From positions 1,888,001-1,952,000 of the forward strand of contig JASGHJ010000002.1 of the NCBI GenBank assembly GCA_047602405.1: a stretch of 64,000 nucleotides of DNA. The letters run 5' to 3'. Of this stretch, positions 1,546 through 63,929 are shown piece after piece. Numbering within the stretch: position 1 is the first letter of the stretch; every line of letters begins with the position of its first letter. The notes below the pieces were generated by a model. It saw only the letters and a list, made by a program, of their open reading frames with translations, did no database searches and had not been told where the DNA came from. A program made the translations under genes and the position numbers. This stretch comes from Anaeromyxobacteraceae bacterium (GTDB lineage Bacteria > Myxococcota > Myxococcia > Myxococcales > Anaeromyxobacteraceae).

Positions 1546-1872
1546 TGTCCACCCTCACGTTCGTCGCCGTCGCAGCCCTGAAGCTCACCCTCGCCCAGAT
1601 CCGCCGCCGGCACCGACGCCCGCGACAACGGGCCCGGCACCATCGACGTCGCGAGCTGGCCCGCGGAGCAGAAGGCCCGCTACCCGCTCTTCCAGCAGAA
1701 GTGCGCGAAGTGCCACGCCCTCGCACGCTCCGTGAACTCGAAGTTCTCGGCCGCCGAGTGGAAGCGCTACATGAAGCGGATGGTCCGCCGCCCGAACGCG
1801 GGCGTCACCGACGAGCAGGCCGAGGACATCTTCGAGTTCCTCAAGTACTACGCCTCGAAGCAGGGGCTCTAG
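1545..1872 (+). CDS. Small monoheme cytochrome c, copy 1 (apparent +1 frameshift at ~1600)
   Basis: ATG 1545 gives signal-like MSTLTFVAVAALKLTLAQ. After removing one base at GATCC (1598-1602) it reads ...FQQKCAKCHAL...EWKRYMKRMVRRP...KQGL-TAG 1872. Confidence 0.75.
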
Positions 1873-1894
1873 CCGCAGGACCGGGAGCTTCACC

Positions 1895-2219
1895 ATGACC
1901 ACCCTCGCCCTCGTGGCCGCCGCCGCGCTGCAGCTTCTCCTCCGGCCAGGACGCCGGCTCGGATGCCCGCGACGCCGGCCCCGACAAGATCGACGTCTCG
2001 GGCTACCCCGCCGAGCAGAAGGCCAACTACGAGCTCTTCCGCCAGAAGTGCTCGAAGTGCCACAGCGCGGCGCGGGCGGTGAACTCCAGGTTCTCCGCGG
2101 TCGAGTGGAAGCGCTACATCAAGCGGATGGTGCGGCGCCCCAACGCGGGCGTCACCGAGGAGCAGTCGGACGCCATCTTCGAGTTCCTGAAGTTCTACAG
2201 CACGAAGCTCGGCCTGTAG
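1895..2219 (+). CDS. Small monoheme cytochrome c, copy 2, tandem paralog (apparent +1 frameshift at ~1942)
   Basis: MTTLALVAAAALQLLL, then shifted frame GQDAGSDARD...FRQKCSKCHSA...EWKRYIKRMVRRPNAG...KLGL-TAG 2219. Aligns along its length with copy 1. Confidence 0.75.
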
Positions 2220-2244
2220 CTCGAGGCCGGGCCGAGGGACCACC

Positions 2245-4691
2245 ATGCCCCGCCCGACGACGCTCGCCACCACCCTCGCCGCCCTCGCCGCCGCCGCGCT
2301 CGCCTGCTCGAAGCCGGGGGTCGGCGCGAAGGTGGAGAAGGTCGTGCCCGACACGACCGTGAAGACCCACGCGGTCGCGCTCACCGGCGCGACCGTGGAC
2401 GCCGCGAGCCGGAAGGTCGTGGTGGACTTCACGCTGACGTACGGCGGCACGCCGGTGGCCCTCGCGGACCTCGCGACGCTGAAGCCGACGTTCACGCTCG
2501 CCGAGCTCACGGTGGATCCGGAGAGCGGGCTCCCCTCCTGGAAGAGCGCGCTCCTCACCGGCTCCCAGACCGCCACGTCGAACCCGATCGGCGGTCCCGG
2601 GACCCGCGACGAGAACGTCCTCAAGGGCCTGAAGCAGCCCGGCTCGGAGGCGACCGGCACCGCCGAGGCGCTCGCCGCGGGGGGCTTCCGCTACACCTTC
2701 GCGAACGCCCTCGCCGACGGCTACGACGCGACCCACACCTGGCGCGTCGGCGTCTGGCTGAACGGCGTCTCCGCGGGCACCCACGCGACCTGCACCACGC
2801 TCGACTTCGTCCCGGCCGGCGGCGCGGCCGCGCCCCGTGACCTCGTCGCCGACGCCGACTGCCAGCGGTGCCACACCCAGGTGCTCGCCCACGGGCGGCG
2901 CGTCGGCGTGCAGCTCTGCACGACCTGCCACACGTGGCAGGCGGTCGACCCCGACACCGTCGATCCGGCGGCGCCGCTCGCCGCGACCCCCGCCACGAAC
3001 CCCAACCCCCTCGACTTCGGCCGCCTGGTCCACCGCATCCACCGCGGGAAGAACCTGCCGACCCTCTACACCGCCTCGAGCGCCGCCCCCGCCCCGGCCC
3101 TCGGCTCGGCCGCCATCGCCGCCCCCTTCGCGCCGGGCCGGAACGCCGCGGTCCCCGGCCGGAAGTTCTCGATCGTCGGCTACAACAGCACGGTCATGAC
3201 GTTCGGGCAAATCCTCGAGTGGACCTCGCCCGACGGGACGACGGTGTCGAAGCGGGCCGTCGCCGGGGGCGTGGGGTTCCCGCGCGACTACCGCGACTGC
3301 GACGCCTGCCACGCGAAGGCCGCGCAGGGCGCCCGGATCCACACCGAGGTCTCGCGCCGCACCTGCGCGGGCTGCCACCCGGACGTGTGGTTCGCGACGG
3401 CGACCCCGCCCGACACCGCGCACCTCGCCCACCCGGGCGGCGTGCAGGCCGACGACACCGCCTGCGCCGGCTGCCACGTGGCCCCCGGCTCGCCGAAGCT
3501 CTACGTCGACTCGAGGGACGTGCACACGCCGGTGGCGGACCACGAGCGGTTCAGCGCGATCACGGCCTCGATCGTGTCGGTCTCCGGGCTCCTCCCCGGC
3601 GGCTTCCCGACGGTCGTGTTCACGCTCTCCGACCGCACCGGGCCCATCTCCCCATCAACGACGCGACGACCGCGCCGCCCGTCGACTCGGCCGCGAAGCC
3701 GAGCCCGGTCGCCCGCAAGGTCACCCGCCTCGCGTTCGTCCTCTCCGGCCCGACCTCGCCCGACCGCCTCACCTCGAACGTGCCCCTCTCCGAGCCGGTC
3801 ACCGACAAGCTCGTCGCCGACGAGCAGGGCCGCTTCACCTACACCTTCAAGACCGCGAAGCTCCCCGCCGCCGCCACCGGCGCCTGGACCGTGATGCTCG
3901 AGGCCCGCCGCCAGCTCGCGGCGCCCTCGAAGTTCTACGATCTCGCGACCGACACGCTCGTCTGGCCCTACACCGGCGAGGGCATCACCGAGTACGCGAA
4001 CAACGCGATGGTGGACGTCGCCGTGGACCTCGGCGACACCTCGAAGCCGGCGCTCGCGCGCCGCGCGGTGGTGGACGTCCAGAAGTGCAACGCCTGCCAC
4101 AAGACGCTGCTCCTCCACGGCGGCAACCGCTCGGGCGTCGAGAGCTGCCCGATGTGCCACACGCCGGACCAGACCGACTGGGCCCAGCGGCCCAAGCTCG
4201 CGAGCGGGAACGTGCTCCTCGCCGGGACCCTCGACGGCATCGAGGAGCGCTCGGTCCACTTCAAGACCATGGTCCACCGCATCCACACCGGCGGCCGCAA
4301 GGGCATCGCCCAGCTCGACGCGGAGCCGTTCGTCATCTACGGCTTCGGCAAGAACCCGCTCTTCTTCGACGAGGCCGTGTTCCCGAACGACCTCGCGAAC
4401 TGCCGCGTCTGCCACCTCGGCGAGTCCTTCCGCCTCGAGGCAATCCCGGTGGACGCCGCGCCGACGGTGGCGAACGAGACCGCCTCGCTCGTCCACAAGA
4501 ACACCGCGGCGCACGGGTCGGACGCGAAGGTCCGCCCGATGCAGGCCGCCTGCACCTCCTGCCACGACACCGGCACGGCGCACGACCACGCCAACCGGAA
4601 CACCGTGAACGGGGTGGAGGCCTGCGTCTCCTGCCACGGCGAGTCGGCGCAGTACTCGCTCTACGGGCTGCACGGGGTCGAGAGGCCGTAG
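2245..4691 (+). CDS. Decaheme c-type cytochrome lipoprotein, OmcA/MtrC family (apparent frameshift at ~3650, C homopolymer)
   Basis: Lipobox ALAC. Ten CXXCH motifs in two groups of five (CQRCH, CTTCH, CDACH, CAGCH, CAGCH / CNACH, CPMCH, CRVCH, CTSCH, CVSCH), each preceded by a heme-free domain. VHRIH motifs. Joins ORFs 2245..3894 and 2868..4691. Confidence 0.9.
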
Positions 4692-7986: not shown

Positions 7987-8494
7987 CTAACCCGCCGGGC
8001 AGGTCGTGGGCAGGATCGGCTTCACCGCGTCCGCGAGAATCCTCGCGGGAGATGGCGCCGCCGAACACCTTCTGGACCCGCCCCTCGGGATCGATCACGA
8101 AGGTCTTCGGGTAGGCCTGCACGCCCCAGGCGTCGAGGGCGCTCGCCCGCTCGTCGACGAGGATCGGGTACGGGATGCGGGAGGCCATGGCCACGAGGTC
8201 CTCGTGGCCGGACTCCTCCGCCACGCCGAGCACCTCGAAGCAGCTGCCGCGGTGCTCCTGCCAGAACCGGGTGATCTCCGGGAGCTCCTGCCGGCACGGC
8301 GGGCACCAGGTGGCCCAGAAGTTCACCGCCACGACCTTGCCGCGGTACTGGGCGAGGTCGACCTGCTTGCCCGAGAGGTCCGGCAGCGCGAGCGGCGGCG
8401 CCGAGACCGCCTGCCGCTCGCTCTTCTGCGTGAAGAGCTGGAAGGTCACGACGGCGACGAGGGCGATGGCGGACAGGCCGATGACGCTCTTCAT
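7987..8494 (-). CDS. TlpA/ResA-family thiol-disulfide reductase (apparent frameshift at ~8039)
   Basis: N-terminal anchor, VNFWATWCPPC, YPKTFVIDPEG. Removing one base at 8037-8041 gives the C-terminus EDLADAVKPILPTTCPAG-stop 7987. Confidence 0.88.
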
Positions 8495-13072: not shown

Positions 13073-13760
13073 CTACGCGCGGAGCGCGGCGAGGACCGCC
13101 GTGAGATTGTCCGGCAGCGGCGCCTCGAGCACGAGCGGCTCGCCGGTCGCGGGGTGCGCGAGCTCGAGCCGCGCGGCGTGCAGCGGCGTGCGCGCGAGCG
13201 TCGCGGCTCCGAACCCGAGCGGCCCGGGCTCCGCGTAGTCCGGGTCGACCGCGAGCGGGAAGCCGGCGCTCCTCAGGTGCACGCGGATTCTGGTGGGTCC
13301 GGCCGGTCTCCGGGCGCGCCTCCACGAGGGCGAGGTCGACGGCGGGGAACCGCTCGAGCACCGCGAGGCCGGTCGCGGACGCCTTCGCGCCCTCCTCGCC
13401 CGGCCGGCCCGGGCGCATCCTGCCCTTGCGGCCCTTCGCGATGGGCACGTCGACCCGCAGGGTGTCCCAGGGCGGCACGCCGCGGACGAGCGCGAGGTAG
13501 CGCTTGCGCGGCTGGCCCGCGTCGAACGCGAGGTTGAGCGTCCGGTGCGCCTCCGCCGTCCGCGCCAGCACGAGCACGCCGCTCGTGCCGCGGTCGAGCC
13601 GGTGCACCACCCAGAGCCGCCCGAAGCGGCCCTCGAGCTCCTCCCGCAGGCTCGCCTCCCCGGGCGTGCGCCCCGGGATGACGAGGCGCCCCGCCGGCTT
13701 CGAGATCGCGACGAGGTGCGCGTCCTCGAGCAGGACCGCGGGCGGGGCCTCCCCGCTCAC
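13073..13760 (-). CDS. RluA-family pseudouridine synthase (apparent frameshift at ~13288)
   Basis: KPAG, HRLDRGTSG, then TGRTHQ|IRVHL split across frames at GATTC 13286-13290. Confidence 0.88.
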
Positions 13761-18939: not shown

Positions 18940-19035
18940 GGCAGGGCGTCCTAGGCTGGTGCCGGGCTCGGTCTTCAAAACCGATGGATGGTGCTGAGAG
19001 GCGCTGTCGGAGGGTTCGATTCCCTTGCCCTGCCG
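18940..19035 (+). tRNA. selC: tRNA-Sec (anticodon UCA)
   Basis: 8-bp acceptor stem GGCAGGGC/GCCCTGCC with G discriminator, anticodon arm TCGGT-CTTCAAA-ACCGA, long variable arm, T arm GAGGG-TTCGATT-CCCTT. CCA not encoded. Confidence 0.93.
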
Positions 19036-34946: not shown

Positions 34947-36454
34947 GTGGCCCGCGCGCCGGCGCTCCTCGTCGCCCTCTCCCTCGGGCTCGCCGCCTCC
35001 GGGTGCGCGAGCGCGCGGATGGCGCGGTGCCCCGCGAAGGGCGGCCCGGAGTGGCGCGAGCTCGTCACCGATCACTTCGTCCTGCGCACGAACCTCCCCT
35101 CCGGGCGGGCCGCGAAGCTCGCCGGCCGGCTCGAGCGCATGCGGGCCGGCGTCGTCGCCGCGCTCGGCGTGCAGGCCGTGCAGCCCGGGCGCGTGGAGGT
35201 CATCGCGTTCCGCTCGAAGGCCGAGTACCGGGCCTTCGCGCCGGAGCACTCCGCCGGCTACTACCTGCGCTACTCCGGCGGCCCGCCGCGCATCGTGCTC
35301 TCGGCGCGCGCCGGCCCCTCCGAGCGCGCCCTGCTCGCGCACGAGCTCACGCACCACTTCATGGCCGGCGCCTTCTGGAGACAGCCGCGCTGGCTCTCGG
35401 AGGGGCTCGCCGTCTACATGGAGTCGCTCGGCGAGGACGACCCGCGGGACGAGACCCTCCACCTCGGCGGCATCCCGATGATGCGGCTCGCCCGCGCGCG
35501 GGAGGGGCTCGTGCCGGTGCGCGAGCTCCTCGCCTGGGAGCAGGACCCGGGGCGGCGGCTGACGCTCGAGTACTACGCGACGAGCTGGGTGCTCGTGCAC
35601 TGGCTCGTGCAGCGGCGGCCCCAGGCCCTCGCCGAGATCGAGCGGCGGCTCGCGGCGGGCGAGGACCCCGCGGAGGCCTGGGCGGCCGCCCTGCCCGACT
35701 ACCGGCCCGACCGCGGGACGGCGCTCGAGGGGCTCGACCTCGTGCTCACCCAGTACGTCGTGTACCAGATCGTCGGGCAATCGAAGGAGATCCCGGTGCC
35801 TCCCGCCGTGGGCTACTGGGAGCGCCCGATGCCCACGGACGAGGTCCACGCGCTCCACCTCACGCTCTGGAACAACGGGCCGGACCGCGGCCGGGCGGCG
35901 CTGCAGGCCGAGGTGGACGAGGCGCTCTCGGAGGCCCCCGATCGCCCATCGCGCTCTCGGTGAAGGCGCTCGTCCTCAAGGAGGGGAACGCCGAGGAGAT
36001 GGCACGGCGGTCCGTCGAGAGCTACCCGGGCGATCCCCGCGCGTGGATCTTCCTCGGGCAGGCCTTGCCGCCGGGCGAGGAGCGGATCCACGCGTTCCAG
36101 AAGGCCGTCGAGTACGCCTCCGAGAACCCCGCGGCCCTGATCACGCTCGCGAACGAGCTCGTCGACGCCGGCCGGTCCGGCGAGGCGCTGCCCTGGGCGC
36201 GCAAGGCGGTGAAGCTCGCGCCCTGGAGCCCGCCGCTCCTCGCCACCTACGCCCGCGTCCTCTCCGACCTCGGCCAGTGCGCGCTCGCCATCCCCCACCA
36301 GCTCCGGGCGGTGGAGGCGCTCCCGGAGAGCACCGGGACCGTGGAGCGCGCGGGCTACCTCGAGAAGCTCGTCGCCTACCGGAGCCAGTGCCGCCGCGGC
36401 GGCGCGCCGAGCGTCGCCGACGTGCCGCGCGACGCGGGCGGCGGCGGCCCCTAA
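34947..36454 (+). CDS. Lipoprotein with DUF1570-like zincin domain and TPR repeats (apparent frameshift at ~35942)
   Basis: Lipobox ASGC, HELTH...WLSEGLA. TPR-like C-terminus continues in another frame after GATC 35940-35943. Confidence 0.75.
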
Positions 36455-37775: not shown

Positions 37776-38790
37776 CTACCCCCGCTTCGGCCCGGGCGTC
37801 GTGGGCGGCGGGGACAGGGCCGCGGCCATCCGCTCGAGGTACGACCGCGCCACCCGCTGTCCGTCGAGCCTGAGCTCGCGGGCGAGGCCGAACAGGATGC
37901 CGCGCAGGTAGACCGGCGCGGGCAGGGCCGAGAAGCGGTCCGCCTCGATGTTCTCGAGGTGGTGGCGCGTCACCTTGGTGCGCTCGGCCACGATCTCGGA
38001 TCGGGATGCCGCGGGCCTCGCGTACGCGGCGCAGCATCTCGCCCGTCCACGGGGCGTCCGCGGCGAAGGCCGGCATCGGCTCCTCGGCGCGCGGCGGGGC
38101 GGTCACCGCCTGGGGGACGGGCGTCATCGCGTTCGCCAGGCTCACCGGACGGTCGAGCCGGATCGGCGCCCTGCGGAGCACCTCGGGCGTCACCTCCGGT
38201 GGGCTCGCCTCGGGGTGCGGCGTCACCGGGCGCGTCAGGAGGAGGACCCCTCGACTCCGGGCTGCCTCCGGCGGCTCCACGCGCGGGGTGGGCGGCTCGG
38301 TGGGTTCCTCCCCGGTCGGCTCGGCCTCCGCGGCGGGGTCGGGCCCGGGGGCCGGCGACGCAGCCTCGAGCGCCGGCGGCGCAGCCTCGAGGGCCGGCGG
38401 CGCAGGCTCGGGGTCGGCCGGCGAGGCCTCCGGGCCCGCGGCGATCGGTCCGGGCGCTCCGGGTGCGGGCGGCACCTCGTCGGACGGCGCCCTCGCCGGG
38501 ATGACCGGCGGCAGCGACCAGGGCTGCACGCGCTGCGCGGTCGCGCCGTTGCCGGCGATGGTCGCGTCGTAGCGGGCGCGCGCCTCGGGGTCGAGGAGCG
38601 TCCTGTCGGCCTCCTCGATGCGGCGGTTCATGAGCTCCGCCTCGTCCGCGGACATGAGCGAGTACATCGCGAGCGAGCCCGGCCCGAAGATGCTGCGGGC
38701 GCGCTCAATCGCCTCCCGCACGGCGTCCTGCGCCGCGTCCGCCGGCACCTCGAGGATCTCGTAGAGGGTCTGGTCGTTGAGGCGCTTCAC
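37776..38790 (-). CDS. J-domain-like N-terminus, Pro-rich linker, RodZ-like HTH (apparent frameshift at ~38000)
   Basis: LYEILEV...TLLDPEARARYD, then GEMLRRVREARGI|VAERTKV...LENIEADRF..LPAPVYLRG. Confidence 0.8.
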
Positions 38791-45193: not shown

Positions 45194-46603
<1,410 letters not shown>

Positions 46604-46632
46604 GGTAGGCCGGGGTGCGAGCCGGCGCTAAC

Positions 46633-46661
46633 TTGACCGGTCCTGGACCCGCTGCTAGCGT
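46633..46661 (+). promoter_or_regulatory. Candidate sigma70-type promoter
   Basis: TTGACC, 17-bp spacer, TAGCGT, ending 40 nt upstream of ATG 46701. Confidence 0.45.
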
Positions 46662-46700
46662 CGATTCCTGGCGATTTACGGCCATTTACGGAGGCGCGGG

Positions 46701-49575: not shown

Positions 49576-49694
49576 GGCCCGAGTGAAACCCGGCCGCCCC
49601 GCGCGAGCAAGTCGTTTGCCCCCGGCGCACCGAGGTGGGTCCGGAGTCTCCGGCCGCCCCCCCCAGGGGCCCTGGGGTAGACTATCCCCTCCCG

Positions 49695-51512: not shown

Positions 51513-52825
51513 GGCCGCGGATCCCGGGGCCCGGCGACCTCCTCGGCGGCCGGTACCGCGTGCGGAACCAGCTCGGGGCCGGCGGCACCGGCACGGTGTT
51601 CGAGGCCGTCCAGGAGGGGCTCGAGCGCCGGGTGGCGCTGAAGCTCCTCCACGCGCACGTCGCCGCGGTGCCGGGCGCGCCGGAGCGCTTCCGGCGCGAG
51701 GGCATCATCATGGCCCGGCTGCGCCACCCGAACGCCGTCGAGGTCTACGAGTGGGGCGACGACGCGGGCACGCTCTTCCTCGCCATGGAGCTCCTCGAGG
51801 GCCTCCCGCTCGACGACCTCGTCTACCGGTCGGGGGCCCTGCCCATCGCCCGGATCGCCGGGCTCGTCGCGCAGGTGCTGGACGTGCTCGACGCCGCCCA
51901 CGCGCTCGGGATCATCCACCGCGACCTCAAGCCGTCGAACCTGATGGTCTGCCGGGGCGCCTCGGGCGACCGGGTGAAGCTCCTCGACCTCGGCCTCGCG
52001 ACCGTGGTGGGCGACACCGCCCTCGCGCGGCTCACGCAGAGCGGCGCGCTCACCGGGACGCCGGCCTACATGTCCCCGGAGCAGAGCCGCGCCGAGCCGG
52101 TGGACGCGCGCTCCGACCTCTACGCCCTCGGGTGCGTCCTCTACGAGCTCGTCACCGGGCAGCCGCCCTTCGGGGACGCGCCGACCATGGACGTGCTCGC
52201 CGGCCACGTCTACCGCCCGGCGCGACCGCCCTCCGACGTGCGGGCCGACCGGGGCGTCCCGCTCGCGCTCGAGCGCGTGATCCTGCGGGCGCTCGCGAAG
52301 CGCCCGGTGGACCGGCCGCAGTCCGCCGCCGCGATGAAGCGGGAGCTCCTCGCCGCGATGACGGAGCCGGCCGGCGCGACGCCGGTCCGCGCCGCCCGGG
52401 CCTCCCCGCGGACGCCGCCCTCCCCCTGGATCCCCGAGGCCACGCCGGGCGCCGCGGCCGCCCCGGTGGGCGTGCTCGCCCTCGCCCCGGGCGGCGGGGC
52501 GCGCGAGGACGCCGACGAGGGCGTGCTCACCGCGCTCGGCGCCTCCGGGCTCGACGCCCGCCCCATCCGCCGCGACGCCCCGCCCGCCGCCTGGTCGTGC
52601 GTGCTCGTGGTCGCGGCCGCCGGCGGGGCCTTCGCCGTCGACGCCGCCCGCGCCTTCGCGGCCGCGCCGGGGGCCCCTCCGGTGCTGCTCTGCGGCCCGG
52701 AGGACGACTTCCCGCTCATGACCGCCGCCATCCAGGCCGGCCTCTTCGACTACGTGCCGCTCCCGCTCGATCCCGCAGACCTCCTGCGCAAGGTGACCCG
52801 TGCCCAGCGCCAAGCCCAGCCCTGA
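51509..52825 (+). CDS. Ser/Thr protein kinase with C-terminal receiver-like domain
   Basis: LGAGGTGTV, VALK, HRDLKPSN, DLG, GTPAYMSPEQ, SDLYALG. C-terminal PVLLCG...AGLFDYVPLPLDPADL. Confidence 0.92.
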   Translation: MRPRIPGPGDLLGGRYRVRNQLGAGGTGTVFEAVQEGLERRVALKLLHAHVAAVPGAPERFRREGIIMARLRHPNAVEVYEWGDDAGTLFLAMELLEGLPLDDLVYRSGALPIARIAGLVAQVLDVLDAAHALGIIHRDLKPSNLMVCRGASGDRVKLLDLGLATVVGDTALARLTQSGALTGTPAYMSPEQSRAEPVDARSDLYALGCVLYELVTGQPPFGDAPTMDVLAGHVYRPARPPSDVRADRGVPLALERVILRALAKRPVDRPQSAAAMKRELLAAMTEPAGATPVRAARASPRTPPSPWIPEATPGAAAAPVGVLALAPGGGAREDADEGVLTALGASGLDARPIRRDAPPAAWSCVLVVAAAGGAFAVDAARAFAAAPGAPPVLLCGPEDDFPLMTAAIQAGLFDYVPLPLDPADLLRKVTRAQRQAQP

Positions 52826-54653
52826 CCGCGCCCGCCGGCTCGCCGGCGTGCTGCTCGCCGCCGTGCTCGCCCTCCCCGCCGCCGCGCCCGCCAGACCGCC
52901 CGACACGTGGGTCGTGAAGCCGGGCGAGACCTGCGTCGGCATCGCGCGCGTCGTGTTCGGCAACGGCAAGGCGGGCCTCGCGCGCCTCCACGCCCTCAAC
53001 CCGCAGCTCGGCCCGCAGCCGCACCGGCTCGTCCCGGGCAGCGTGCTCCGCCTCGCCGACGCGCCCGTCGCCGAGCTCACGCTCGTGCGCCCCCGCGTCG
53101 AGGCGCGCGCGCCCGGCGCCACCGAGTGGTCGCCCGCGTCGCAGGGGCTGGGCCTCCAGCCCCGCTCGCAGGTGACCACGCTCGAGCGCGCCGGCGCCGA
53201 GGTCACCTTCGCGGACACCTCGCGGCTCGTGCTCCGCGAGAACGCGTTCGCCATCATCTACGGCCCGCTCGCCTCGGCCGCGCGCTCGCCGGACCGCTCG
53301 GGCCAGGTCGAGCTCGTGCAGGGCGAGGCCTCGGTGTCCCTCGCGGCGCTGCGGGGCGAGACCGCCCGGGTGGCGACGCCCGGCGCGAGCCTGTCGGCCG
53401 CCTCCCGCGAGGTGGTGGTGGCCGTGGACGGCCCCATGAGCCGGGTCTCCGTGCTCGACGGCCGCGCCGAGGTCTCCGCGCGCGGCAGGGCCGTGGCGCT
53501 CCGCGAGGGCGAGGGCACGCGCGTCGAACAGGGCAAGGCGCCCGAGCCGGCCCGGAAGCTCCCCGCCGCGCCCGAGCTCGCCGGGGCGGCCCGCCGGGTG
53601 CTGCTCTCCGGGGAAGGCCCCGGCAAGGAGCTGCGCCTCGGCTGGGCCCCGGTGCCGGGAGCGGCCCGGTACCGCGTCGAGGTGGCGCGCGACGAGCGCT
53701 TCGCGGACCGGGTCGCGGTGCTGGACCTCGCGGCCTCCGCCGCGCCCGAGGCGGTCGTCCCGGGCCTCGCGCCCGGACGGCTGCGCGCCCGCGTGCGCGC
53801 CGTGGACGCCGCCGGGCTCGTGGGCCCGGCGTCCGCGCCGGCGATCGTGGACGTGGTCGCGCTGCGCATCGAGCGCGGCGAGCCCGGCGCCGACGGCGTG
53901 GTCCGGGGCGAGCAGGAGGTGCGGCTCGCGCTCGAGGCGCCGCAGGGCGTCGAGGACCTCGTGCTCACCGTGGACGGGAAGCCGGACCGCTCTCCGGTCA
54001 CGCTCGCCACGCCGGGGCGGCACGCGGTCCGCGTCGGGATCCCGGGCGCGCCCGCGGGCGAGGGCGTGGGCCTCGCCGCGGACGTGGTGGGCCCGCCGCC
54101 CGCGCCGCCGGCGCCGCCGCCGGCCTCCCCGCCCCCCGCCGCGCCCGCGGAGCCCTCGGGGCCGGTGGTCGAGGCCCGGGTCGCCGTCGTGTCCGGACAC
54201 GGTCCGGCGGCGCAGGGGAGCCCGCTCTCGAGCCACGCGGCCGTCGAGCTGCACGCCGGGTGGAGGGTGTCGCGGGTGCTCGCGCTCACCTTGTACGGGT
54301 CGCACGGGCCCGGGGCGCTCGGGTTCGGGGCGTGCCCGGCGGCCGGCTGCGGCTCGACGAGCGCGGCGGGCTTCGAGGCTGAATTCTCGCTCGCGCCGGG
54401 CGCCGCCTCGAACCCGTGGATCGGGCTCGGAGCGGGGCTGTCGTGGATCCAGCCGCCGACCGGGACGCCGCAGCGGAGCACCACGCTGCTCAGGACCCGT
54501 ATCGGGGTGACCTCGGAGATCGCGCGAGGGCTCGCCGTCGGCCCGTGGTTCGGCTGGAGCTTCGAGCGGCCGGAGGCGTCGGCCGGGTCCAGCCGGTCGC
54601 TGCACGGGTGGATCGCGGTCGGGGTGAGCGGCGCATGGGAAGGGCGCAGGTAG
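52800..54653 (+). CDS. Exported LysM + FecR + FN3-like + C-terminal beta-barrel-like protein
   Basis: Signal peptide, WVVKPGETC..IA...NPQL...LVPG.VLRL (LysM), VTT..AGAEVTFADTSRLVL (FecR), W.PVPGAARYRVEVARDERF (FN3), Pro linker, amphipathic strands. Confidence 0.8.
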   Translation: MPSAKPSPDRARRLAGVLLAAVLALPAAAPARPPDTWVVKPGETCVGIARVVFGNGKAGLARLHALNPQLGPQPHRLVPGSVLRLADAPVAELTLVRPRVEARAPGATEWSPASQGLGLQPRSQVTTLERAGAEVTFADTSRLVLRENAFAIIYGPLASAARSPDRSGQVELVQGEASVSLAALRGETARVATPGASLSAASREVVVAVDGPMSRVSVLDGRAEVSARGRAVALREGEGTRVEQGKAPEPARKLPAAPELAGAARRVLLSGEGPGKELRLGWAPVPGAARYRVEVARDERFADRVAVLDLAASAAPEAVVPGLAPGRLRARVRAVDAAGLVGPASAPAIVDVVALRIERGEPGADGVVRGEQEVRLALEAPQGVEDLVLTVDGKPDRSPVTLATPGRHAVRVGIPGAPAGEGVGLAADVVGPPPAPPAPPPASPPPAAPAEPSGPVVEARVAVVSGHGPAAQGSPLSSHAAVELHAGWRVSRVLALTLYGSHGPGALGFGACPAAGCGSTSAAGFEAEFSLAPGAASNPWIGLGAGLSWIQPPTGTPQRSTTLLRTRIGVTSEIARGLAVGPWFGWSFERPEASAGSSRSLHGWIAVGVSGAWEGRR

Positions 54654-54660
54654 GTCCGCC

Positions 54661-55338
54661 GTGTACGCACGCACCGAGCGCCCGCTCACCGAAGCCGAGC
54701 AACGGCGCCTCCGCAGGCAGCTCGCGAGGAAGTCCCGACGATCGCTGGCCTCGCCCAGGCCCTGGATCGCCAGCCTCGTCGTCTTCGGCGTGCTCTGGGC
54801 GGCGACCGTGCTCGCCACGGGCCGGGTCCTCTGGCCCACGGTCCTGTGGGGGGCGGCCGCGCTCCTCATGCCCCTCTGGATGGACCGGGACGAGCGCCTC
54901 GAGGCCCGCGCGCGTCGCCGCCGGCTCGAGGGTGCGCTGGCTGCGAACCGTGCGGAGGAGCACCGCGTGACGGCCACCGCGGCCGTGCTGCTCGAGGAGG
55001 TCGAGGATCTCGGCGAGGCCTGGGCCTTCCAGGTCGAGCCCGACCGGCTCCTGCTCCTCGGGCCGCGCCAGGCCCTGCCGCGCGGCTTCCCGAGTGACGA
55101 CTTCTCCTACACGAAGTGCCGCGACGCGGAGGGGGCGGTCGTCGAGGAGTGGTTCACGCTGCGCGGCGAGCCGCTCGCTCCGGCGCGCCGGATCCCGGCC
55201 GCGGTCCAGCCCGGGCTCGCGTTCCCTGGCGAGCTCGAGCTCCTCGAGGGGCGGCTGGACCGGCTCGAGGACCTCCTCCGCCCCGCCCGCTCGATCACCC
55301 CACCGCGGCCGCCACCCCCGCCGGCAACCGCATGCTGA
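54661..55338 (+). CDS. Hypothetical membrane protein
   Basis: Two adjacent TM segments followed by a soluble domain. Confidence 0.6.
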   Translation: MYARTERPLTEAEQRRLRRQLARKSRRSLASPRPWIASLVVFGVLWAATVLATGRVLWPTVLWGAAALLMPLWMDRDERLEARARRRRLEGALAANRAEEHRVTATAAVLLEEVEDLGEAWAFQVEPDRLLLLGPRQALPRGFPSDDFSYTKCRDAEGAVVEEWFTLRGEPLAPARRIPAAVQPGLAFPGELELLEGRLDRLEDLLRPARSITPPRPPPPPATAC

Positions 55339-56131
55339 CCCTCGTCCCCTTCCCCGGCGCGGAGGCGATCTCGAGCGTGCCGCCCATCAGCTCGACGCGC
55401 TCCTGCATGCCGGCGAGCCCGAGGTGCCCGCCGGCCTCGGACCGCGAGCGCATCGCGGGCACGTCGAACCCCGCCCCGTCGTCGGAGACGACCACGACGA
55501 GCGCGGAGCCCTCCTCGCCGACCGACACCGCGAGCTCCTTCGCGGCGGCGTGCCTGAGCACGTTCGTCACCGCCTCCTGCACGACCCGGAACACGGTGAT
55601 CTCGACGTCCGGCGGGTACCGATCGAGCCCGGCAGGGAGCTCGATCCGCATCTGGATGCCGGAGCGGCGCCGGACCGCCTCGAGCCAGCCCTCGAGCGCG
55701 ACGCGCAGGCCACGCTCGTCCAGCAGCGGCGGCCGCAGGTCGAGCGAGATCCCGCGCACCCGGGCGATGAGCCGGTCGAGGAGCCCGATGGTGTCGGTGA
55801 GGCTCGCGACCTTGGGCGCCGGCGTGGACGGGCGCTTCAGGAGCTGCAGGTTGATCTTCGCGGCCGTGAGCTCCTGGCCGATCTCGTCGTGGAGCTCCCG
55901 GGCGATGCGGCGGCGCTCGTCCTCGCGGACCGCCTCGAGGCGGCGGCTGAGGTCCCGCAGGCGCTCGTAGGCGCGCTCGAGCTCGGCCGTGCGCGCCTTG
56001 AGCTCGCGGACCCGGTACCGGTACGCGAGGTACGCGACCGTGATCACGAGGATCGCGAAGGACGCGCGCACCGGCCACGGAAAGAGGACGAAGTCGCCCG
56101 GCGGGACCGACCAGTTCAAGGCCGGCATCAT
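55295..56131 (-). CDS. NarX-like (HisKA_3) histidine kinase with a single TM and no sensor domain
   Basis: ERRRIARELHDEIGQ, LRP..LD..GL, QEAVTNVLRHA, DDGAGF, GLAGMQER. ATGA overlap with rsmI. Confidence 0.9.
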   Translation of the reverse strand: MMPALNWSVPPGDFVLFPWPVRASFAILVITVAYLAYRYRVRELKARTAELERAYERLRDLSRRLEAVREDERRRIARELHDEIGQELTAAKINLQLLKRPSTPAPKVASLTDTIGLLDRLIARVRGISLDLRPPLLDERGLRVALEGWLEAVRRRSGIQMRIELPAGLDRYPPDVEITVFRVVQEAVTNVLRHAAAKELAVSVGEEGSALVVVVSDDGAGFDVPAMRSRSEAGGHLGLAGMQERVELMGGTLEIASAPGKGTRVSMRLPAGVAAAVG

Positions 56132-56976
56132 ACCCCGTGCTTGATCCGCTCGAGGGCCGCGTACACCTCGTGCCGCACGAGCCCGCGCGCGCGCGCGACC
56201 TCCTTCGCGATCGCCGTCGGCGGCTCGCCCGCCGCGACGCGGCGCCGGAGCTCGTCCTCGAGCGGCTCGACCGCGACCTCGGGGGCGTGCGCCGCCGCGC
56301 CCTCCGCCGGCGGGCCGACCACGAGGGTCACCTCGCCCTTCACCTCGCCCGCGAAGCGCGCGGCGAGGGCCGTGAGCGTGCCCCGCGCGAGCTCCTCGTG
56401 GACCTTCGTGAGCTCGCGCGCGACCACCGCCGGGCGGTCGCCGAGCGCCTCGGCGAGGTCGAGGAGCGTGTCGCGGGTGCGGTTGCCGGCCTCGTAGAGC
56501 ACGAGCGTGCACGGGAGCGAGGCGAGCCACCGGAGCGCGTCGGCGCGGGCCCCGCCCTTGCGCGGCAGGAAGCCTGCGAAGGTGAACCGGTCGGCGGGCA
56601 GGCCCGAGCCGGCGAGGGCGGCGAGCGCGGCGCTCGGGCCGGGCACGGGCACCACCGTCGCGCCCGCCTCCCAGGCGGCCGCCACGAGCGCGGCGCCGGG
56701 GTCGGAGACGCCGGGGGTGCCGGCGTCGGTGCAGAGCGCCACCTCCTCGCCCGCGGCGAGCCGGTCGAGCACCGGCCCGAGCCGGGCCCGCTCGTCGAAC
56801 GCCGGGAGCGAGACCAGCGCGGGCGCCGGCGCGCCGAGGTGGGCGTAGAGCTTGCGGGTGCGGCGGGTGTCCTCGGCGGCGACCGCGGTCACGCGCCGGA
56901 GCACCTCGGCGGCCCGCGGCGAGAGGTCGCCGAGGTTGCCGATGGGCGTCGCGAGGACCCAGAGCGTCCCGCTCAC
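56128..56976 (-). CDS. rsmI: 16S rRNA C1402 2'-O-methyltransferase
   Basis: ATPIGNLGD, AEDTR, DAGTPGVSDPG, PGPSA, RELTKVHEE. Confidence 0.96.
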   Translation of the reverse strand: MSGTLWVLATPIGNLGDLSPRAAEVLRRVTAVAAEDTRRTRKLYAHLGAPAPALVSLPAFDERARLGPVLDRLAAGEEVALCTDAGTPGVSDPGAALVAAAWEAGATVVPVPGPSAALAALAGSGLPADRFTFAGFLPRKGGARADALRWLASLPCTLVLYEAGNRTRDTLLDLAEALGDRPAVVARELTKVHEELARGTLTALAARFAGEVKGEVTLVVGPPAEGAAAHAPEVAVEPLEDELRRRVAAGEPPTAIAKEVARARGLVRHEVYAALERIKHGV

Positions 56977-57371
56977 TGCGCGCCCCCGTCGGCGTCGAAG
57001 GCGTTCCGGTGGTGGCGGACGACGGGCGCCCCCCGCCCGAGCTCGATGGCGACCACGTCGAAGCGGATGGGGCGGTCGAGGCCGCCGTGGCGCGCGGCCC
57101 AGTCGGTCGCGGCGGCGACCACCCGCAGCGCCTTGCGCCGGTCAATCGACTCCTCGGGCGTCATGGGCGCGCCGACCTCGCGGGAGCGGACCTCCACGAA
57201 GCACAGCACCGCGCCGTCCCGGCAGACGAGGTCGACCTCGCCGCGCCGCGCGCGGTGGTTCCTCGCGAGGATCTCCATGCCCTTCCCTTCCAGGTACTCC
57301 GCCGCGAGCGCCTCGGCGCGCCGGCCGGCCTCGGTGCGCTCGCCCGGGGCTCTCGAGGGGGGCCGCCGCAC
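56973..57371 (-). CDS. yraN: YraN (UPF0102) family protein
   Basis: G..AE..A..YL...ILARN.R...GEVDLV...FVEVR...RFDVV. Confidence 0.92.
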   Translation of the reverse strand: MRRPPSRAPGERTEAGRRAEALAAEYLEGKGMEILARNHRARRGEVDLVCRDGAVLCFVEVRSREVGAPMTPEESIDRRKALRVVAAATDWAARHGGLDRPIRFDVVAIELGRGAPVVRHHRNAFDADGGAQ

Positions 57372-57380
57372 GCGCGCGCC

Positions 57381-59229
57381 TCAGGCCACGTGATCCGCGG
57401 CCTCCTTGAAGGCCGGGTCGGAGGTCGCGTGCACGATCTGGCCGGGCTTCGCGAGCTGCTTGAGGAGCCGCGCCACGAAGCGCCGCGAGCCCTCGGCGAG
57501 CCCGGCGAAGGCGTCGTCCACCACCGCCACGGAGCGCGTCTCCACGAGCGCGCGCTCGAGGAACGCGAGCTTGAGCGCGAGCCAGAGGAGATCGCGGTCG
57601 GCCATCGAGAGCGTGGAGGCGGGCGTGGGCCGGCCGCCGGTCACCGCCGCGAGGTTCCCGCGGTCGTCCACCTGCAGCGCCGAGAGCCGCTGGAAGGTGA
57701 GCCCGGCGAGGTGCGCGGAGGCCTTCTGCGCGACGGCGCGCGCGGCGGCGGCCGGGCTCTGCTTGAGCTCGGTCCCGGCCCGCTCGAGGAGCGCCCGGAG
57801 GGGGTCGACCACCGGCGCCGCCGTCACCGGCGGTGGGGGCGGCGCCGCCGCGGCGGGCGGGGCGGCCGCGTCGGCCTCCATGCGCTGGATCTCGCTCTCC
57901 ACCGAGCGCACGTCGCGGACGAAGCCGCCGGCGTCCTCGGAGAGCCTCGCCTCGAGGTCCCTGATCTGCGCCTCGACCGCGGCGCGCTCGCGCTTGCCCT
58001 CGGTGGCCTCCGGGGAGGCCTCCCACTCGTCGCGGCGGCGGCGCCACTCGGCCACCACCTGGTCGGCGTCGGCGAGCCGCCCGAGCGCCTCCTTCAGCTC
58101 CGCGACGCGGGTGAAGCCGAGCGCCTTCATCGCCGCGTGGATCTCGGCGCCGTCCCGCTCGAACTGCTCCCCGACCTTCTGCTCCCAGTCGGCCAGCACC
58201 CGGCGCCGCCGGCCGACGCGCTCCCAGCCCTCGAGCTCGCCGATCCAGCGGTACGCGAGCACCCCGGCGCCGCCGAACGCGGCGATGGCCAGGATCGACA
58301 GGTAGCGGAGAATCGCTGTGCGACGCGGCCCCGTACGCGGCGAGGACCGCGAAGAGGAGCCCGCCGCCGGCGAGCCCCCAGAACCGCCCGTCGCCCCAGA
58401 ACGGCACCGGCCCGCCGCCCGCCTCGGCCTCGGCGAGCGCCTCCTTCTCCCGGGCCGCCTTGGCGCCGGCCTCCTCGCGCCGCGCCGCGAGCTTCTCGTA
58501 GGCGCCGAGCTTCGCCTCGGCCTCCCCGAGCGCGGCGGCCGCCCCGGCCACGTCGCCGAGCTCCTGGCGGGCGGCCTCGGCCTTCTCGAGCCCCTCGGCG
58601 ACGCGCGCGCCGCTCTTCATGACCTCCTCGAGCTTGAACAGCTTCGCCTGGAGCCCGTCGAGCTGGTACTGGAGCTTCTCCGCCACCTTCGCCTTCTCGA
58701 GCTCGGCGCGCAGCGCGACGAGCCGCTTCCTCGCCTCGTCGGGCGGGACGGCCGCGCGGATGGGCTGCTCGGAGCCGGTGATGGAGGTGCGCGCGCCCTG
58801 CTTCGAGGGGAGGTCGGCGGCGGCGATCGTCAGGAACGCCTTCGTCCGCTCGGCGGGCGGCGCGCCCGCGGTGGCGCGCAGGAAGTCGGCGATCGCGGGG
58901 AGCTCCGACGCGACGAGCGCGAAGGAGCGCTTCTCGGGATCGAACCGGTGCAGCTGGCAGCCCGCCGCGAAGTCGCGGACCAGCCGGTAGGTCACCCGGT
59001 CGTCGCCGACCAGGGTCAGGCCCGCCTTGAGCGGCGACTGGCCGGGCTGCCCCGACGTGCGGGGGAGCCCCTCGCCGTCGCGGGAGGTGGGGTGGAGGAG
59101 CGCCTCGAGGAGCTTGCGCAGCGCGACGCCATCGGCGGCGACGACGTTGTAGCCGGGGCGCAGCGTCGCCCGGCCACCGGCCGGAGCGACACCGCGGACG
59201 CCCTGCGCTGCGAACTCGAGGAGGATCAC
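57381..59229 (-). CDS. SMC/Rad50-like coiled-coil protein with degenerate ATPase motifs (apparent frameshift at ~58312)
   Basis: Long coiled coils flanking a hydrophobic hairpin, C-terminal LSMADRD...ALKLA...VVDDAF. Joins ORFs 57142..59229 and 57381..58262. Confidence 0.7.
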
Positions 59230-59305
59230 GGGTGGGCGCCCATGTTAGCGCCCGGCCCGTGCTCCGGGAAGCACTACGCCTCGATCCGGGGTGGGGCCCC
59301 GGCGA

Positions 59306-59332
59306 TCCCTCGACAAGCTCGGGATCGACGGG
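59306..59332. repeat. REP-like palindromic intergenic element, copy B
   Basis: TCCCTCGACAAGCTCGGGATCGACGGG, with the same arms as 32021-32070. Confidence 0.5.
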
Positions 59333-59351
59333 GCGGGGGCCATGCCCCCGC
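59333..59351 (-). terminator. GC hairpin directly after the rplS stop
   Basis: GCGGGGGC-CAT-GCCCCCGC. No U-tract, so terminator function is uncertain. Confidence 0.35.
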
Positions 59352-59352
59352 G

Positions 59353-59748
59353 CTACTCGGTCTTCGGGGCAGGGGCGGCCGGCGCGGCGGCCTCGCCGCT
59401 GCCCTCCTCCTGGTGGAGGCGCGCGGCCTTGCCCTGGAGGTCGCGGAGGAAGTAGAGGCGGGCGCGGCGGACCTCGCCGTGGCCCAGCACCTCGACCTTG
59501 TCCACGCGGGGGCTGTGGGTCGGGAAGATGCGCTCCACGCCCACGCCGTAGCTGACCTTGCGGACCGTGAAGTTGGAGGCGGTGCCACCCTTGCGGTAGG
59601 CGATGACCACGCCCTCGAAGACCTGGATGCGCTCCTTGTCGCCTTCCTTGATCTTCGTGTGGACGCGGACGTTGTCACCCGCGCGCATCTCGGGGACGTC
59701 CTTCCGCTTGTACTTCGCCTCGACGTCGGCAATCGCCTTGCGCATCAT
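59353..59748 (-). CDS. rplS: 50S ribosomal protein L19
   Basis: [39 protein letters not shown]. Confidence 0.97.
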
Positions 59749-59762
59749 GGTTCCGCTCTCCT

Positions 59763-60500
59763 CTACAGCTCGTCGTCCCCGGCCTCGATGAGCCGGAGGT
59801 CCTTTTCGTCGAGGCGCAGCCGCTCGAACAGATCGGGCCTGCGCTCCCGGGTGGCGCGCAGCGACTCGCGCCGCCGCCACCGCTCGATGCGCCGGTGGTC
59901 CCCGCTCAGGAGGACCTCCGGCACCTTCATGCCCCGGTACTCCGGGGGCCGCGTGTAGTGGGGGTACTCGAGGGCGCCGTCGGCGAAGCTCTCGGCGCCC
60001 GCGGAGTCCGCGTTGCCGAGCACGCCGGGCACGAGCCGCGCCGCCGCGTCGACCACGCACAGCGCCGCGAGCTCACCGCCCGTGAGCACGAAGTCTCCCA
60101 GGGAGACCTCTCTGTCCACCACCGACCTCACGCGCTCGTCCACTCCCTCGTACCGGCCACACACCAGGATCAGCCTGCCGTGCCCCGCCAGCTCCTTCGC
60201 CAGCGCCTGCGAGAGCACCTGCCCCCGCGGGCTCGTCAGCACCACCCAGGCCCCGGGCCTCCGCGCCCGCGCCGCCTCGATGGCCTCCGTGAGCGGCTCG
60301 GGCTTCATCACCATCCCGGCCCCGCCCCCGTACGGCGCGTCGTCGGCGACCCGGTGCTTGCCCGCGGCGTGCTCTCGCACGTCGTGCACCGCCACGTCGA
60401 CGAGCCCGGCCTCCCTGGCCTTCGCCAGGATGGAGCCCGCGAGGTAACCCTCGCAGAGCCCGGGGAACAGCGTCAGGATGTCGACCTCCAGCCCGGCCAC
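59763..60500 (-). CDS. trmD: tRNA (guanine-37-N1)-methyltransferase
   Basis: [42 protein letters not shown]. Confidence 0.97.
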
Positions 60501-60525
60501 GTCGGCCTCTCCCGGTGCCTCCTGC

Positions 60526-61026
60526 CTAACCGCCCTGCTCCAGCAAACCCTCCGGCGGATCGACCACGATGCGCCGGCGCTCCAGATCCACTTCCACGTA
60601 CGGCGCGAGCGGGATCAGCACCTCTCCCCGGTCGCCCGTCACCTGCAAGACGTCCACGGCGCCCGTCTCGAGCAGCCCGGTCACCTTCCCGACCGGCTGG
60701 CCCGCCGCCGTCACCACCTCGAGGCCCTCGAGATCGGCCCAGTAGAAGGCCCCCTCGCCCGCCTCGCCCAGGTCCTCGCGCTCGGCGAGCACCTCGGCCC
60801 CCACCCACGTCTCGGCGGCGGTCCGGTCCACCACCCCGTCCACCCCGAGCGCCCAGAGGCGCCCCTGCGGCCGCGCCACCTGCACCTTCACCAGGCGATC
60901 CGGCTGCCCGGCCCTCCGGAGCGTCACGCGCTCGAGCTCGGCGAGCGCGCCCTCCGTGCCGGCCACCCCCAGGAGCCCCTTGAGGCCCAGGGCGCGGACG
61001 ACCTTGCCCAGCGGGACCAGCGGCAC
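60526..61026 (-). CDS. rimM: Ribosome maturation factor RimM
   Basis: [30 protein letters not shown]. Canonical position. Confidence 0.93.
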
Positions 61027-61030
61027 GCCG

Positions 61031-61261
61031 CTAGTCCAGGATGTCGAGCACCGCCCGCTTGCCCTCGCGGCGCGCGGCGGCCTCGACGACGGTGCGGAGC
61101 GCCTTCGCGGTCCGCCCGCCACGCCCGATGACGCGCCCGAGGTCGTCCTCGGCCACCGTGAGCTCGAGCACCGTCGAGCGATCCCGCTCGATGGCGTCGA
61201 CCTTCACGGCGTCCCGGTGCTCGACGAGCTCCCGGGCGAGCCAGAGGACGAGATCGTGCAC
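61031..61261 (-). CDS. khpA: KH-domain RNA-binding protein KhpA
   Basis: DLGRVIGRGGRTAKALRTVV, located between rpsP and rimM. Confidence 0.93.
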   Translation of the reverse strand: MHDLVLWLARELVEHRDAVKVDAIERDRSTVLELTVAEDDLGRVIGRGGRTAKALRTVVEAAARREGKRAVLDILD

Positions 61262-61264
61262 GCC

Positions 61265-61540
61265 CTAGGCCTTCTTCCCGGCGCTCTCGGCCTTCGGGGC
61301 GGCCTTCCCGGCGCGCTTCAGGATCTTCGCGACGGTCGGGCTCGGCTTCGCGCCGATCTTGAGCCAGTGCTGGATGCGCTCGGCCTTGAGCTCGATCCGC
61401 TCCGGGGAGCGGGTCGGGTCGAAGATGCCGACGTCCTCGAGGTACTTGCCGTCCCGCGCCGCGCGCGAGTCGGTGGCCACCACGTGATAGAAGGGCGCCT
61501 TGTGCGTGCCCGCACGCGAGAGCCTGAGAACCACCGCCAT
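61265..61540 (-). CDS. rpsP: 30S ribosomal protein S16
   Basis: LRLSRAG..KAPFYHVVATDSR..RDGKYLE. Confidence 0.97.
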   Translation of the reverse strand: MAVVLRLSRAGTHKAPFYHVVATDSRAARDGKYLEDVGIFDPTRSPERIELKAERIQHWLKIGAKPSPTVAKILKRAGKAAPKAESAGKKA

Positions 61541-61560
61541 GTGAAGCCTCCTGTGTTTCC

Positions 61561-61608
61561 TGGACCGCGGTGCGGTCGCCTTCGTGGACCGCGGTGCGGT
61601 CGCGGTCC
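61561..61608. repeat. Tandem 19-bp direct repeat / hairpin in the rplQ-rpsP spacer
   Basis: TGGACCGCGGTGCGGTCGC at 61561-79 and 61585-603. GGACCGCG/CGCGGTCC stem at 61586-61608. Confidence 0.75.
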
Positions 61609-62042
61609 TACTTCTTGGTCTTCTTCTCGGCCTTCTCGGCGGCCGGCTTCTCGGTCTTCTCGTCGCCGCCGGCCGCGGAGGCCGGGGAGCGGTCGAGCAG
61701 CTCGATCATGGCCATCTCGGCCGCGTCGCCCGCCCGGCGCCCGATCTTCACGATGCGCGTGTAGCCACCCGGGCGGCTCTTGAAGCGCTCGGCCATCGGG
61801 CCGAACAGCTTGTTGAGCGCCTCGACGTCCTTCACGTCGCGGTTCGCGATGCGGCGGTGGTGCGCGCCGCCCTTCTTCGCGAGCGTGATGAACTTGTCGC
61901 AGATGCGCTTCAGCTCCTTGGCCTTGGGCGTGGTGGTCACGATCCGCTCGTGGCGGATGAGCGACGTCACCATGTTCCGGAACATCGCGGTGCGATGCTC
62001 GGTGGTGCGGTCCAGCCTGCGGCCTGCGATCCGGTGCTTCAT
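61608..62042 (-). CDS. rplQ: 50S ribosomal protein L17
   Basis: MKHR...[14 protein letters not shown]...[10 protein letters not shown]...R.GDAAEMA.IEL. Confidence 0.97.
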
Positions 62043-62126
62043 CTGAGTCGTTCCTCTCTGTGTCTCCGGGGGCACAGGCCCCCGCCCCGCCGGGCAAAGC
62101 CCGTCGGGGCCCCACCCCGGGGCAAA

Positions 62127-63146
62127 TTAGGCCTTCAGCTGGCCCTGCGGCGCGGCCTTGGGCGGCCAGTTCTCGAGCTTCATGCCGAGGGAGAGCCCCA
62201 TCTCCGCGAGGATCTCCTCGATCTCCTTCAGCGACTTCCGGCCGAAGTTCTTCGTCTTCAGCATCTCGGCCTCGGTCTTCTGGACGAGATCGCCGATGGT
62301 CTTGATGTTCGCGTTCTGGAGGCAGTTCGCGGAGCGGACCGAGAGCTCGAGCTCGTCGACCGAGCGGAAGAGGTTCTCGTTCAGCTTCTGCTCCTCGACC
62401 GGCTTCACCTCCTCGGCGGGCTCCTCGGCCTCGTCGAAGTTGATGAAGATCGAGAGCTGCTCCTTGACGATCTTGGCGGCGAACGCCACCGCGTCGGCCG
62501 GGGCCACGGACCCGTCGGTCCAGACCTCGAGCGAGAGGCGGTCGTAGTCGGTCTGCTGGCCGACGCGGGCGTTCGTGACCTGGTAGTTCACCTTCCGGAT
62601 CGGGCTGAAGAGCGCGTCGATCGGGATGGTGCCGATGGGCGAGCCCGGCACCTTGTTCCGCTCGGCCGGGACGTAGCCGCGGCCGCGGCGGGCGGTGAGC
62701 TCGGCGCGGACCTTGCCGCCCTCGGAGATGGTGAGGACGTGGTGGCCCGGGTTGAGGACCTCGACCTGCGGATCCACGATGAGGTCGCCCGCCTTGATCT
62801 CGCGGGGGCCGTCCGCCTCGATGCGGAGGGTCTTGACCTCGTTCGTGTGGATCTGGAGGAGGACCTCCTTCATGTTGAGGATGATGTCGGTGACGTCCTC
62901 GGCGACCTCGGGGATGGTCATGAACTCGTGCTCGACGCCCTCGATCTTCACCGAGGTGATGGCGGCGCCCTGCAGGCTCGAGAGGAGCACGCGGCGCAGC
63001 GCATTGCCGAGCGTGATGCCGAAGCCGCGCTCCAGCGGCTCCGCGATGAACTTCCCGTAGGTGTTGCTGAGGCTCTCCTGGTCGACCACGAGCCCGCGGG
63101 GCTTGATGAGGTCGCGCCAGTTCTTCGTGACGATGCCGTCCACCAT
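62127..63146 (-). CDS. rpoA: RNA polymerase subunit alpha
   Basis: [46 protein letters not shown]. Confidence 0.98.
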
Positions 63147-63301
63147 GGGCTGTCTCCTTGGCCGCCGCCCCCTCCCCCCGTCCGGTCAGCCGGGCCGGCG
63201 TGAGGCTCCGTGGGGCGCGCGACGTTGTCGTTCGACGACCTGCCGTGAAAGGGAGCGGGCCCGCGCTGCGTGCGACCGGGCCCGCTCCGGAACTCGGGGC
63301 T

Positions 63302-63929
63302 CTACTTCGAGTAGAGCTCGACGATGAGCTGCTCCTGGATCGGCATCGTGATGTCCTCGCGCGACGGCGAGGTCTTCACGGTGCCCTTGAAGGCGCCCTT
63401 GTCGAGCTCCAGCCAGCCGGGGACCTGGCGGCGGTCGACCGCCTCGAGGGCCTCGGAGAATCCGGACCACCTTCTTCGAGCGCTCCTTCACCTCGACCTT
63501 GTCGCCGGGGCGGCAGAGGTAGCTCGGGATGTTCACCTTGCGGCCGTTCACGCGGAAGTGGCCGTGGCGGACGAGCTGGCGGGCCTCGTTCCGGGTGTCG
63601 GCGAAGCCGAGCCGGAAGACGACGTTGTCGAGCCGCAGCTCGAGCGTCTGGAGGAGGTTCTCGCCGGTCTTGCCCTTCGCGGCGGCGGCGTTGTGGTACG
63701 CGTGGCGGAACCCGGCCTCGAGTAGGCCGTACATCCGCTTCACCTTCTGCTTCTCACGCAGCTGGACGCCGTACTCCGAGAACTTCGTGCGGCCCTGGCC
63801 GTGCTGGCCAGGCGGGTAAGGGCGGCGCTCGATGGCGCACTTGTCCGTGTAGCAACGGTCGCCCTTCAGGTACATCTTCAGGTTCTCGCGCCGGCAGAGG
63901 CGGCACTGGCTTTCGCTGTAACGGGCCAC
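63302..63929 (-). CDS. rpsD: 30S ribosomal protein S4 (apparent frameshift at ~63460)
   Basis: [31 protein letters not shown]. After removing one base it continues [11 protein letters not shown]...[13 protein letters not shown]. Confidence 0.96.

Follow-up and report, generated by a model that had tools for sequence, protein, structure and literature searches.

The stretch of DNA analysed here (the window; 64,000 nucleotides, C2:1888001-1952000) belongs to the genome of an Anaeromyxobacteraceae bacterium (G000; 6.16 Mb, 74% GC, 98% complete, two contigs named C1 and C2) and holds a series of genes whose reading frames are broken by small indels, most of them at the word GATC. A preliminary description of the window counted nine such genes and placed seven of the breakpoints on GATC. 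As shown in Table 1, alignment to G010, a relative of the same genus that is ~93% identical (90-98% per block) and covers 59,602 of the 64,000 bases, confirms all seven as frame-breaking indels in or beside GATC, except that the break at 1598 is a net loss of two nucleotides and not the single nucleotide described. At 8037, 13286, 58310 and 63458 the extra base, an A or a T within GATC, is a +1 in each alignment, although at 8037 G010 itself reads GGTC, not GATC. Positions within one nucleotide of GATC make up 3.1% of the clean window columns, and seven of nine breakpoints (nine being the count of the preliminary description) would fall there by chance with p~1e-9. The breakpoints at 1598, 8037, 13286, 35940 and 37997 are based on G010 together with the codon-frame signal. 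Short-read contigs of related strains were compared over window positions 45000-64000, and among the matches listed base 63459, within rpsD, is absent from four contig sets from four studies; there is no second rpsD copy among the BLAST matches listed. With respect to gene identities, the earlier labels for the RluA, rpsD, thioredoxin-like, DUF1570/TPR and DnaJ-like/HTH_25 genes stand and the cytochrome was read by eye, while the gene called SMC-like has no Pfam match.

Table 1 Frame breaks in the window and modification enzymes elsewhere in the genome. Window positions are plain numbers; other coordinates are given by contig.
Feature	Position	Strand	Observation
Small cytochrome c gene	1598..1603	+	Net -2 around GATC relative to G010; small CxxCH cytochrome by eye
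Second small cytochrome c gene	1935..1936	+	+1 T in GCTCTCC, one mismatch from a SapI site; no GATC
Thioredoxin-like gene (tlpA)	8037..8041	-	GAATC, +1 A; frame score +20.8
RluA-family gene	13286..13290	-	GATTC, +1 T; frame score +30.5
DUF1570/TPR gene	35940..35944	+	-1 immediately 3' of GATC relative to G010
DnaJ-like/HTH_25 gene	37992..38002	-	+1 C (at 37997) between two GATC sites relative to G010
Long gene (earlier SMC-like)	58310..58314	-	GAATC, +1 A; frame score +31.8
rpsD	63458..63462	-	GAATC, +1 A; frame score +33.0
SapI-type endonuclease	C1:90939-92198		46% identical to SapI over 430 columns; open frame of 420 amino acids
Fused SapI-type methylase	C1:74425-77175		906 amino acids; two SPPY/F motifs
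Orphan DpnA-like beta-class methylase	C2:848179-849029		283 amino acids; N6_N4_Mtase, DPPY; outside the window
BsuBI/PstI-type fusion	C2:2292362-2296156		1265-codon frame with methylase and endonuclease domains

The pattern extends over the whole genome. The wider comparison with G010 comprised 56 loci (1.12 Mb of the 6.0 Mb of G010; 982 kb aligned, 799 kb in clean columns), and an unbiased k-mer scan was run on the 312 isolated 1-2 nt indels that separate the two genomes over this 0.8 Mb. GATC holds 80 of them, against 7.0 expected. Seventy-one are a single type of event, in which GATC has become GAATC or GATTC in G000, with one event in the opposite direction; the 169 indels outside the motifs are balanced, with 77 single-base events on either side. 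Expressed per site, single-base insertions affect 73 of 4367 GATC sites but only 2 of 846 GANTC sites. In a reference-free codon-frame test of the whole genome, run with a relaxed threshold (a stricter version recovered 16 of 71 known events), the 1752 GAATC/GATTC sites of G000 give 353 shifts of +1 vs 56 of -1, present across both contigs, with GAAGAAGC giving 64 vs 25 and GAAGAGGC 43 vs 11; the control words GAGTC, GAAAC and CAATC are flat, and GAATC in the G010 loci gives 12 vs 8. A further reference-free frame scan ranks GAATC/GATTC first of all 5-mers genome-wide (285 vs 29 over the 1752 sites); its -1 signals at GTGA and ATGA are read as normal stop-start overlaps. Substitutions are affected as well, with a C>T/G>A excess at GATC in G000 (96 vs 11, p=4e-20) that is the strongest of 64 contexts; a synonymous/non-synonymous test of these changes gave equal control rates and had no power. 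The 5' flank of the GATC events is an A in 49 of 74 cases and never a T. These counts bear out the earlier proposal of a motif-specific error, but not its placement at the C, since most of the indels are a doubled A or T and only the flank events and the substitution excess touch C or G. As side observations, the GATTC at window positions 24297-24301, absent from the preliminary description, has a +1 frame signal of 20.5 and no isolated indel relative to G010, and GATC-rich short tandem repeats with two oppositely oriented arms lie between genes at C1:316250-316500, C2:3644590-3644860 and C2:235950-236270.

GATC is not the only motif. The same scan returned a second, absent from the preliminary description, GAAGAGC/GCTCTTC, with 24 indels against 1.3 expected, in which A5 is doubled in 13 events and G6 in seven. 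Single-base insertions occur at 23 of 452 GAAGAGC sites, compared with 0 of 50, 1 of 695 and 0 of 261 for one-base variants of the word. GCTCTTC is the SapI site (PMC13673671, Table 1), and G000 encodes both a SapI-type endonuclease, found in one of 61 genomes searched, namely G000 itself, and a fused SapI-type methylase. The C-terminal half of the latter, which is the half that was compared with a named enzyme, shares 53% identity with a Saccharopolyspora protein (P0248) named cytosine-N4-specific; this UniRef name is the basis for the base assigned to M.SapI. The motif was recovered before the enzymes were, so that their agreement tests the argument as a whole independently. We consider it likely from these similarities that the SapI-type system marks GAAGAGC/GCTCTTC with N4-methylcytosine (4mC).

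The system thus resembles the SapI restriction-modification system in its endonuclease, in one methylase half and in the error motif, which is the SapI site, but differs in that two methylases are fused and in that the methylase and endonuclease genes are ~14 kb apart, with inverted 2.66 kb insertion sequence (IS) copies between or beside them. At 25 of 32 loci with homologues of the fused methylase, the two remain adjacent, the conserved neighbour being the endonuclease family of C1:90939-92198. The fused methylase gene lies in an island of lower GC content, next to tRNA genes and an integrase. This island (C1:66000-92200) contains the integrase, both SapI-type genes and IS elements between them, including two identical inverted copies of 2,662 nt (71055-73716 and 87774-90435); a second IS is split, and the arrangement suggests an inversion. 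A PDB search with the endonuclease gave nothing usable. An origin of the errors in Illumina adapters was considered and rejected: both motifs occur within the adapter word, but the genome does not contain that word (0 occurrences), GATC is never preceded by an inserted A, and the 5' flanks of the SapI-motif errors match background.

The identity of the affected genes is informative. Ninety-one G010 gene stretches carry such an insertion in G000, and the 89 that were scanned include rpoB, rpoC, rpsD, secY, pheS, argS, trpS, ffh, der, nusG, dnaK and gap. Breaks in genes such as these are incompatible with a viable cell, and the affected genes are therefore not pseudogenes, in agreement with the preliminary description; they should be regarded as intact, the GATC methylase discussed below included. 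Elsewhere in the window there is a tRNA-SeC gene at 18940-19035 (C2:1906940-1907035), and a plasmid search with the window DNA gave nothing usable.

Taken as a whole, the pattern is real and almost certainly an artefact of a known kind. Judging from its contiguity and error pattern, G000 is a long-read assembly, probably nanopore, and the explanation we favour, with good though incomplete confidence, is that the indels at GATC and GAAGAGC are consensus errors of this assembly at methylated bases, GATC likely carrying N6-methyladenine (6mA) from an orphan DpnA-like enzyme and GAAGAGC likely 4mC from the SapI-type system. A genome-wide GATC modification that the base caller did not model, as proposed earlier, remains the likely cause. 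In such a scheme the methyl group would shift the pore current across a few bases, the caller would in some contexts (AGATC, TCGATC) double the A or read the preceding G as A, and ~1.7% of the GATC sites and ~5% of the SapI sites would stay wrong after polishing. Motif-linked errors of nanopore consensus sequences have been reported for Dcm CCWGG (PMC6591954), for GCAGC/GCTGG in Listeria (PMC10687267) and in a 2026 preprint (10.64898/2026.01.14.699587), and C2T/G2A at methylated GATC is described, with amplified-DNA controls, as an R10.4.1 signature (PMC11610603). As in these reports, the errors in G000 recur at one motif, survive consensus and reveal a methylation system, with G>A/C>T at GATC; unlike the mostly mismatched bases that they describe, the main visible class here is a +1 A/T frameshift. 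The artefact class is therefore a published one; an orphan methylase found throughout the lineage and the agreement with SapI add slightly to it.

No responsible enzyme is encoded in the window, as had been stated, and a search of the genome for a GATC methyltransferase, as the preliminary description advised, found the orphan DpnA-like candidate at C2:848.2-849.0 kb. Its gene is itself interrupted twice in G000, with one break at GAAGAGC and the other at GATC, and the G010 copy is whole; in the locus scanned it is flanked by queG and a CDP-alcohol phosphatidyltransferase gene. The high-scoring plasmid relatives examined are the middle gene of Dam-like/methylase/endonuclease operons, with DpnII endonucleases present in both of the plasmid operons scanned. 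No DpnII endonuclease (PF04556) was found in a set of 5 genomes or in 121 genomes of the order, and the methylase is therefore an orphan. For a Dam-like DpnM partner (PF02086/D12), the sole match in G000 is below cut-off and falls on the fused SapI-type methylase, and phage-Dam has no match in G000. The enzyme thus shares with DpnA of DpnII-type systems, e.g. the operon of Lactococcus plasmid pSRQ700, the beta-class N6_N4_Mtase domain, DPPY, the recognition loops and 41-46% identity, and differs in being a single-copy, chromosomal, lineage-wide gene near queG that has neither partner. Its two base-reading loop segments, as defined for CcrM (PMC6787082), follow the DpnA-type rows; they differ from those of CcrM, for which the curated model gives 238 bits against a cut-off of 830. 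Within the genus the gene is present in 34 of 36 genomes. Families are denoted here by handles, f1 being that of G000, and family names are presumptive; the gene is core to three families of the order, occurring in 26 of 26 other f1 genomes, 73 of 74 of f6 (a count that takes in the unpublished G199, on which the result does not depend) and 4 of 4 of f3, and is rare in the rest of the phylum, with 108 of 201 genomes carrying it overall. DpnA-type enzymes belong to the 6mA class. These data make it likely that the orphan methylase marks GATC as 6mA, although activity, pairing with a motif and the modified base are inferred for both this enzyme and the SapI-type one.

Several observations weigh against the favoured explanation. 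G010 and the short-read contigs come from strains other than this sample. The orphan methylase is 41-46% identical to DpnA-type enzymes and 45-47% to CcrM, which gives no separation; its best PDB and NCBIfam matches are CcrM, below cut-off, and a tree of ten methylases with a long-branch outgroup is uninformative. A BsuBI/PstI-type system is encoded, yet CTGCAG has no error excess (1 of 335), and two further gamma-class methylases (C1:160-162 kb and C2:3747 kb) have no assigned motif. The error-rich relatives G004, G012 and G014 have mostly generic G/C insertions, with 0 of 18, 6 of 71 and 1 of 42 indels at GATC, and the footprint is not genus-wide within the small stretches tested. Across the relatives used as replicates, at 40-80 kb each, there is no clear GATC footprint, with G009 aligned over 3.7 kb only. 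The load of generic insertions in G004, G012 and G014 is a feature in its own right, and in G012 the indels reach ~4 for each cleanly aligned kb. Finally, both motifs have the doubled A two nucleotides ahead of a C, an arrangement that 4mC at both would fit, and enzymes that are close homologues may modify different bases, as reported for M.NruI and M.Sbo13I (PMC2890505).

The last two points lead to the alternative that survives best, namely the same artefact with 4mC at GATC (GAT-4mC) made by the orphan beta-class enzyme. The sole C of the GAAGAGC strand is position 7, with errors doubling A5 or G6, the A or T doubled at GATC stands at the same offsets from the C, and the C>T excess falls on the C of GATC. 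Furthermore, callers are commonly trained on data that contain 6mA GATC, so that an indel rate of 1.7% is high, and homology, as the pair above illustrates, does not fix the modified base. On the other hand, the recognition loops and the operon context of close homologues are of DpnA type, a 6mA class, no SPPY-type enzyme was found other than the SapI-type methylase, and G>A at 6mA GATC has been published (PMC11610603). Because GATC-type recognition loops occur in a single candidate, the DpnA-like enzyme, we place 4mC, which the preliminary description had favoured together with 5-methylcytosine (5mC), second to 6mA and consider it unlikely, though still a serious contender. We think it improbable that the errors are context-dependent faults of the caller or polisher involving no modification. 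The strong 5' flank bias would fit such faults, but the borders of the second motif are sharp, its 7 bp are the SapI site in a genome with a strain-specific SapI system, and G004 and G014 have next to no indels at GATC. Phosphorothioation or 5mC at GATC is more improbable again: GATC is a phosphorothioate consensus and the doubled A adjoins the G-A linkage, but this 98% complete genome has no match to PF01507, DndC or PF00145 (the controls for PF01507 and PF00145 matched; Ssp models were not searched separately), so that neither the phosphorothioation nor the 5mC put forward earlier is sustained. Real mutations, through a mutator or programmed slippage at GATC, deserve the least credence: motif indels do hit mutS and mutL, but they also hit the ten genes listed above from rpoB to nusG, and several hundred sites genome-wide.

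Returning to methylation by the orphan enzyme, its lineage-wide distribution raises the question as to what it might do. Orphan methylases have been associated with origin-linked motif clusters (PMC4752239). In the 500 nt upstream of dnaA there are seven GATC in G000, and the mean is 6.2 for 26 genomes with the methylase vs 3.4 for 20 without (backgrounds 3.0 and 3.3; not significant by family, p=0.067), a count that left out seven complete genomes with dnaA at a contig start. The f8 genomes contradict the link, since the gene was not found there in searches, yet 6-10 GATC lie upstream of dnaA; f6 is weak. In the divergent rpmH-dnaA promoter region (C1:1061400-1061890), some GATC positions are conserved across f1. 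The enzyme resembles the orphan Dam and CcrM described in PMC4752239 in being lineage-wide, in having no cognate endonuclease and in the modest GATC excess upstream of dnaA, but it is on a different branch from Dam, and MutH was not found (0 of 5 genomes). For the lineage, the literature covered, including supplements of PMC4752239 and with subscription papers and REBASE outside its scope, yielded one methylome, that of Myxococcus hansupus, with m6A at 31.9% of GATC (PMC4765838). A bolder proposal, which we offer tentatively and regard as rather doubtful in full, is that a core orphan DpnA-derived GATC methylase of three families, likely including those of Anaeromyxobacter and Myxococcus, is a Dam/CcrM equivalent acting at rpmH-dnaA GATC sites, possibly through 4mC, and that indel spectra of long-read assemblies can be read as methylomes, with motifs assigned to enzymes from the assembly without raw signal, because the SapI site was recovered blind.

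For the organism itself, the frame scan puts the number of affected genes at ~300 for GATC and ~70 for the SapI motif, or ~550 and ~150 if the rates derived from G010 hold for all 33,163 and 2,935 sites. In a genome that is 98% complete, several hundred genes therefore appear broken but are probably intact, and such false breaks distort pseudogene counts, protein databases and pathway calls. The same errors provide indirect evidence that this uncultured strain has an active SapI-type methylase, and the orphan methylase found throughout this lineage of myxobacteria-like organisms is a lead to keep.

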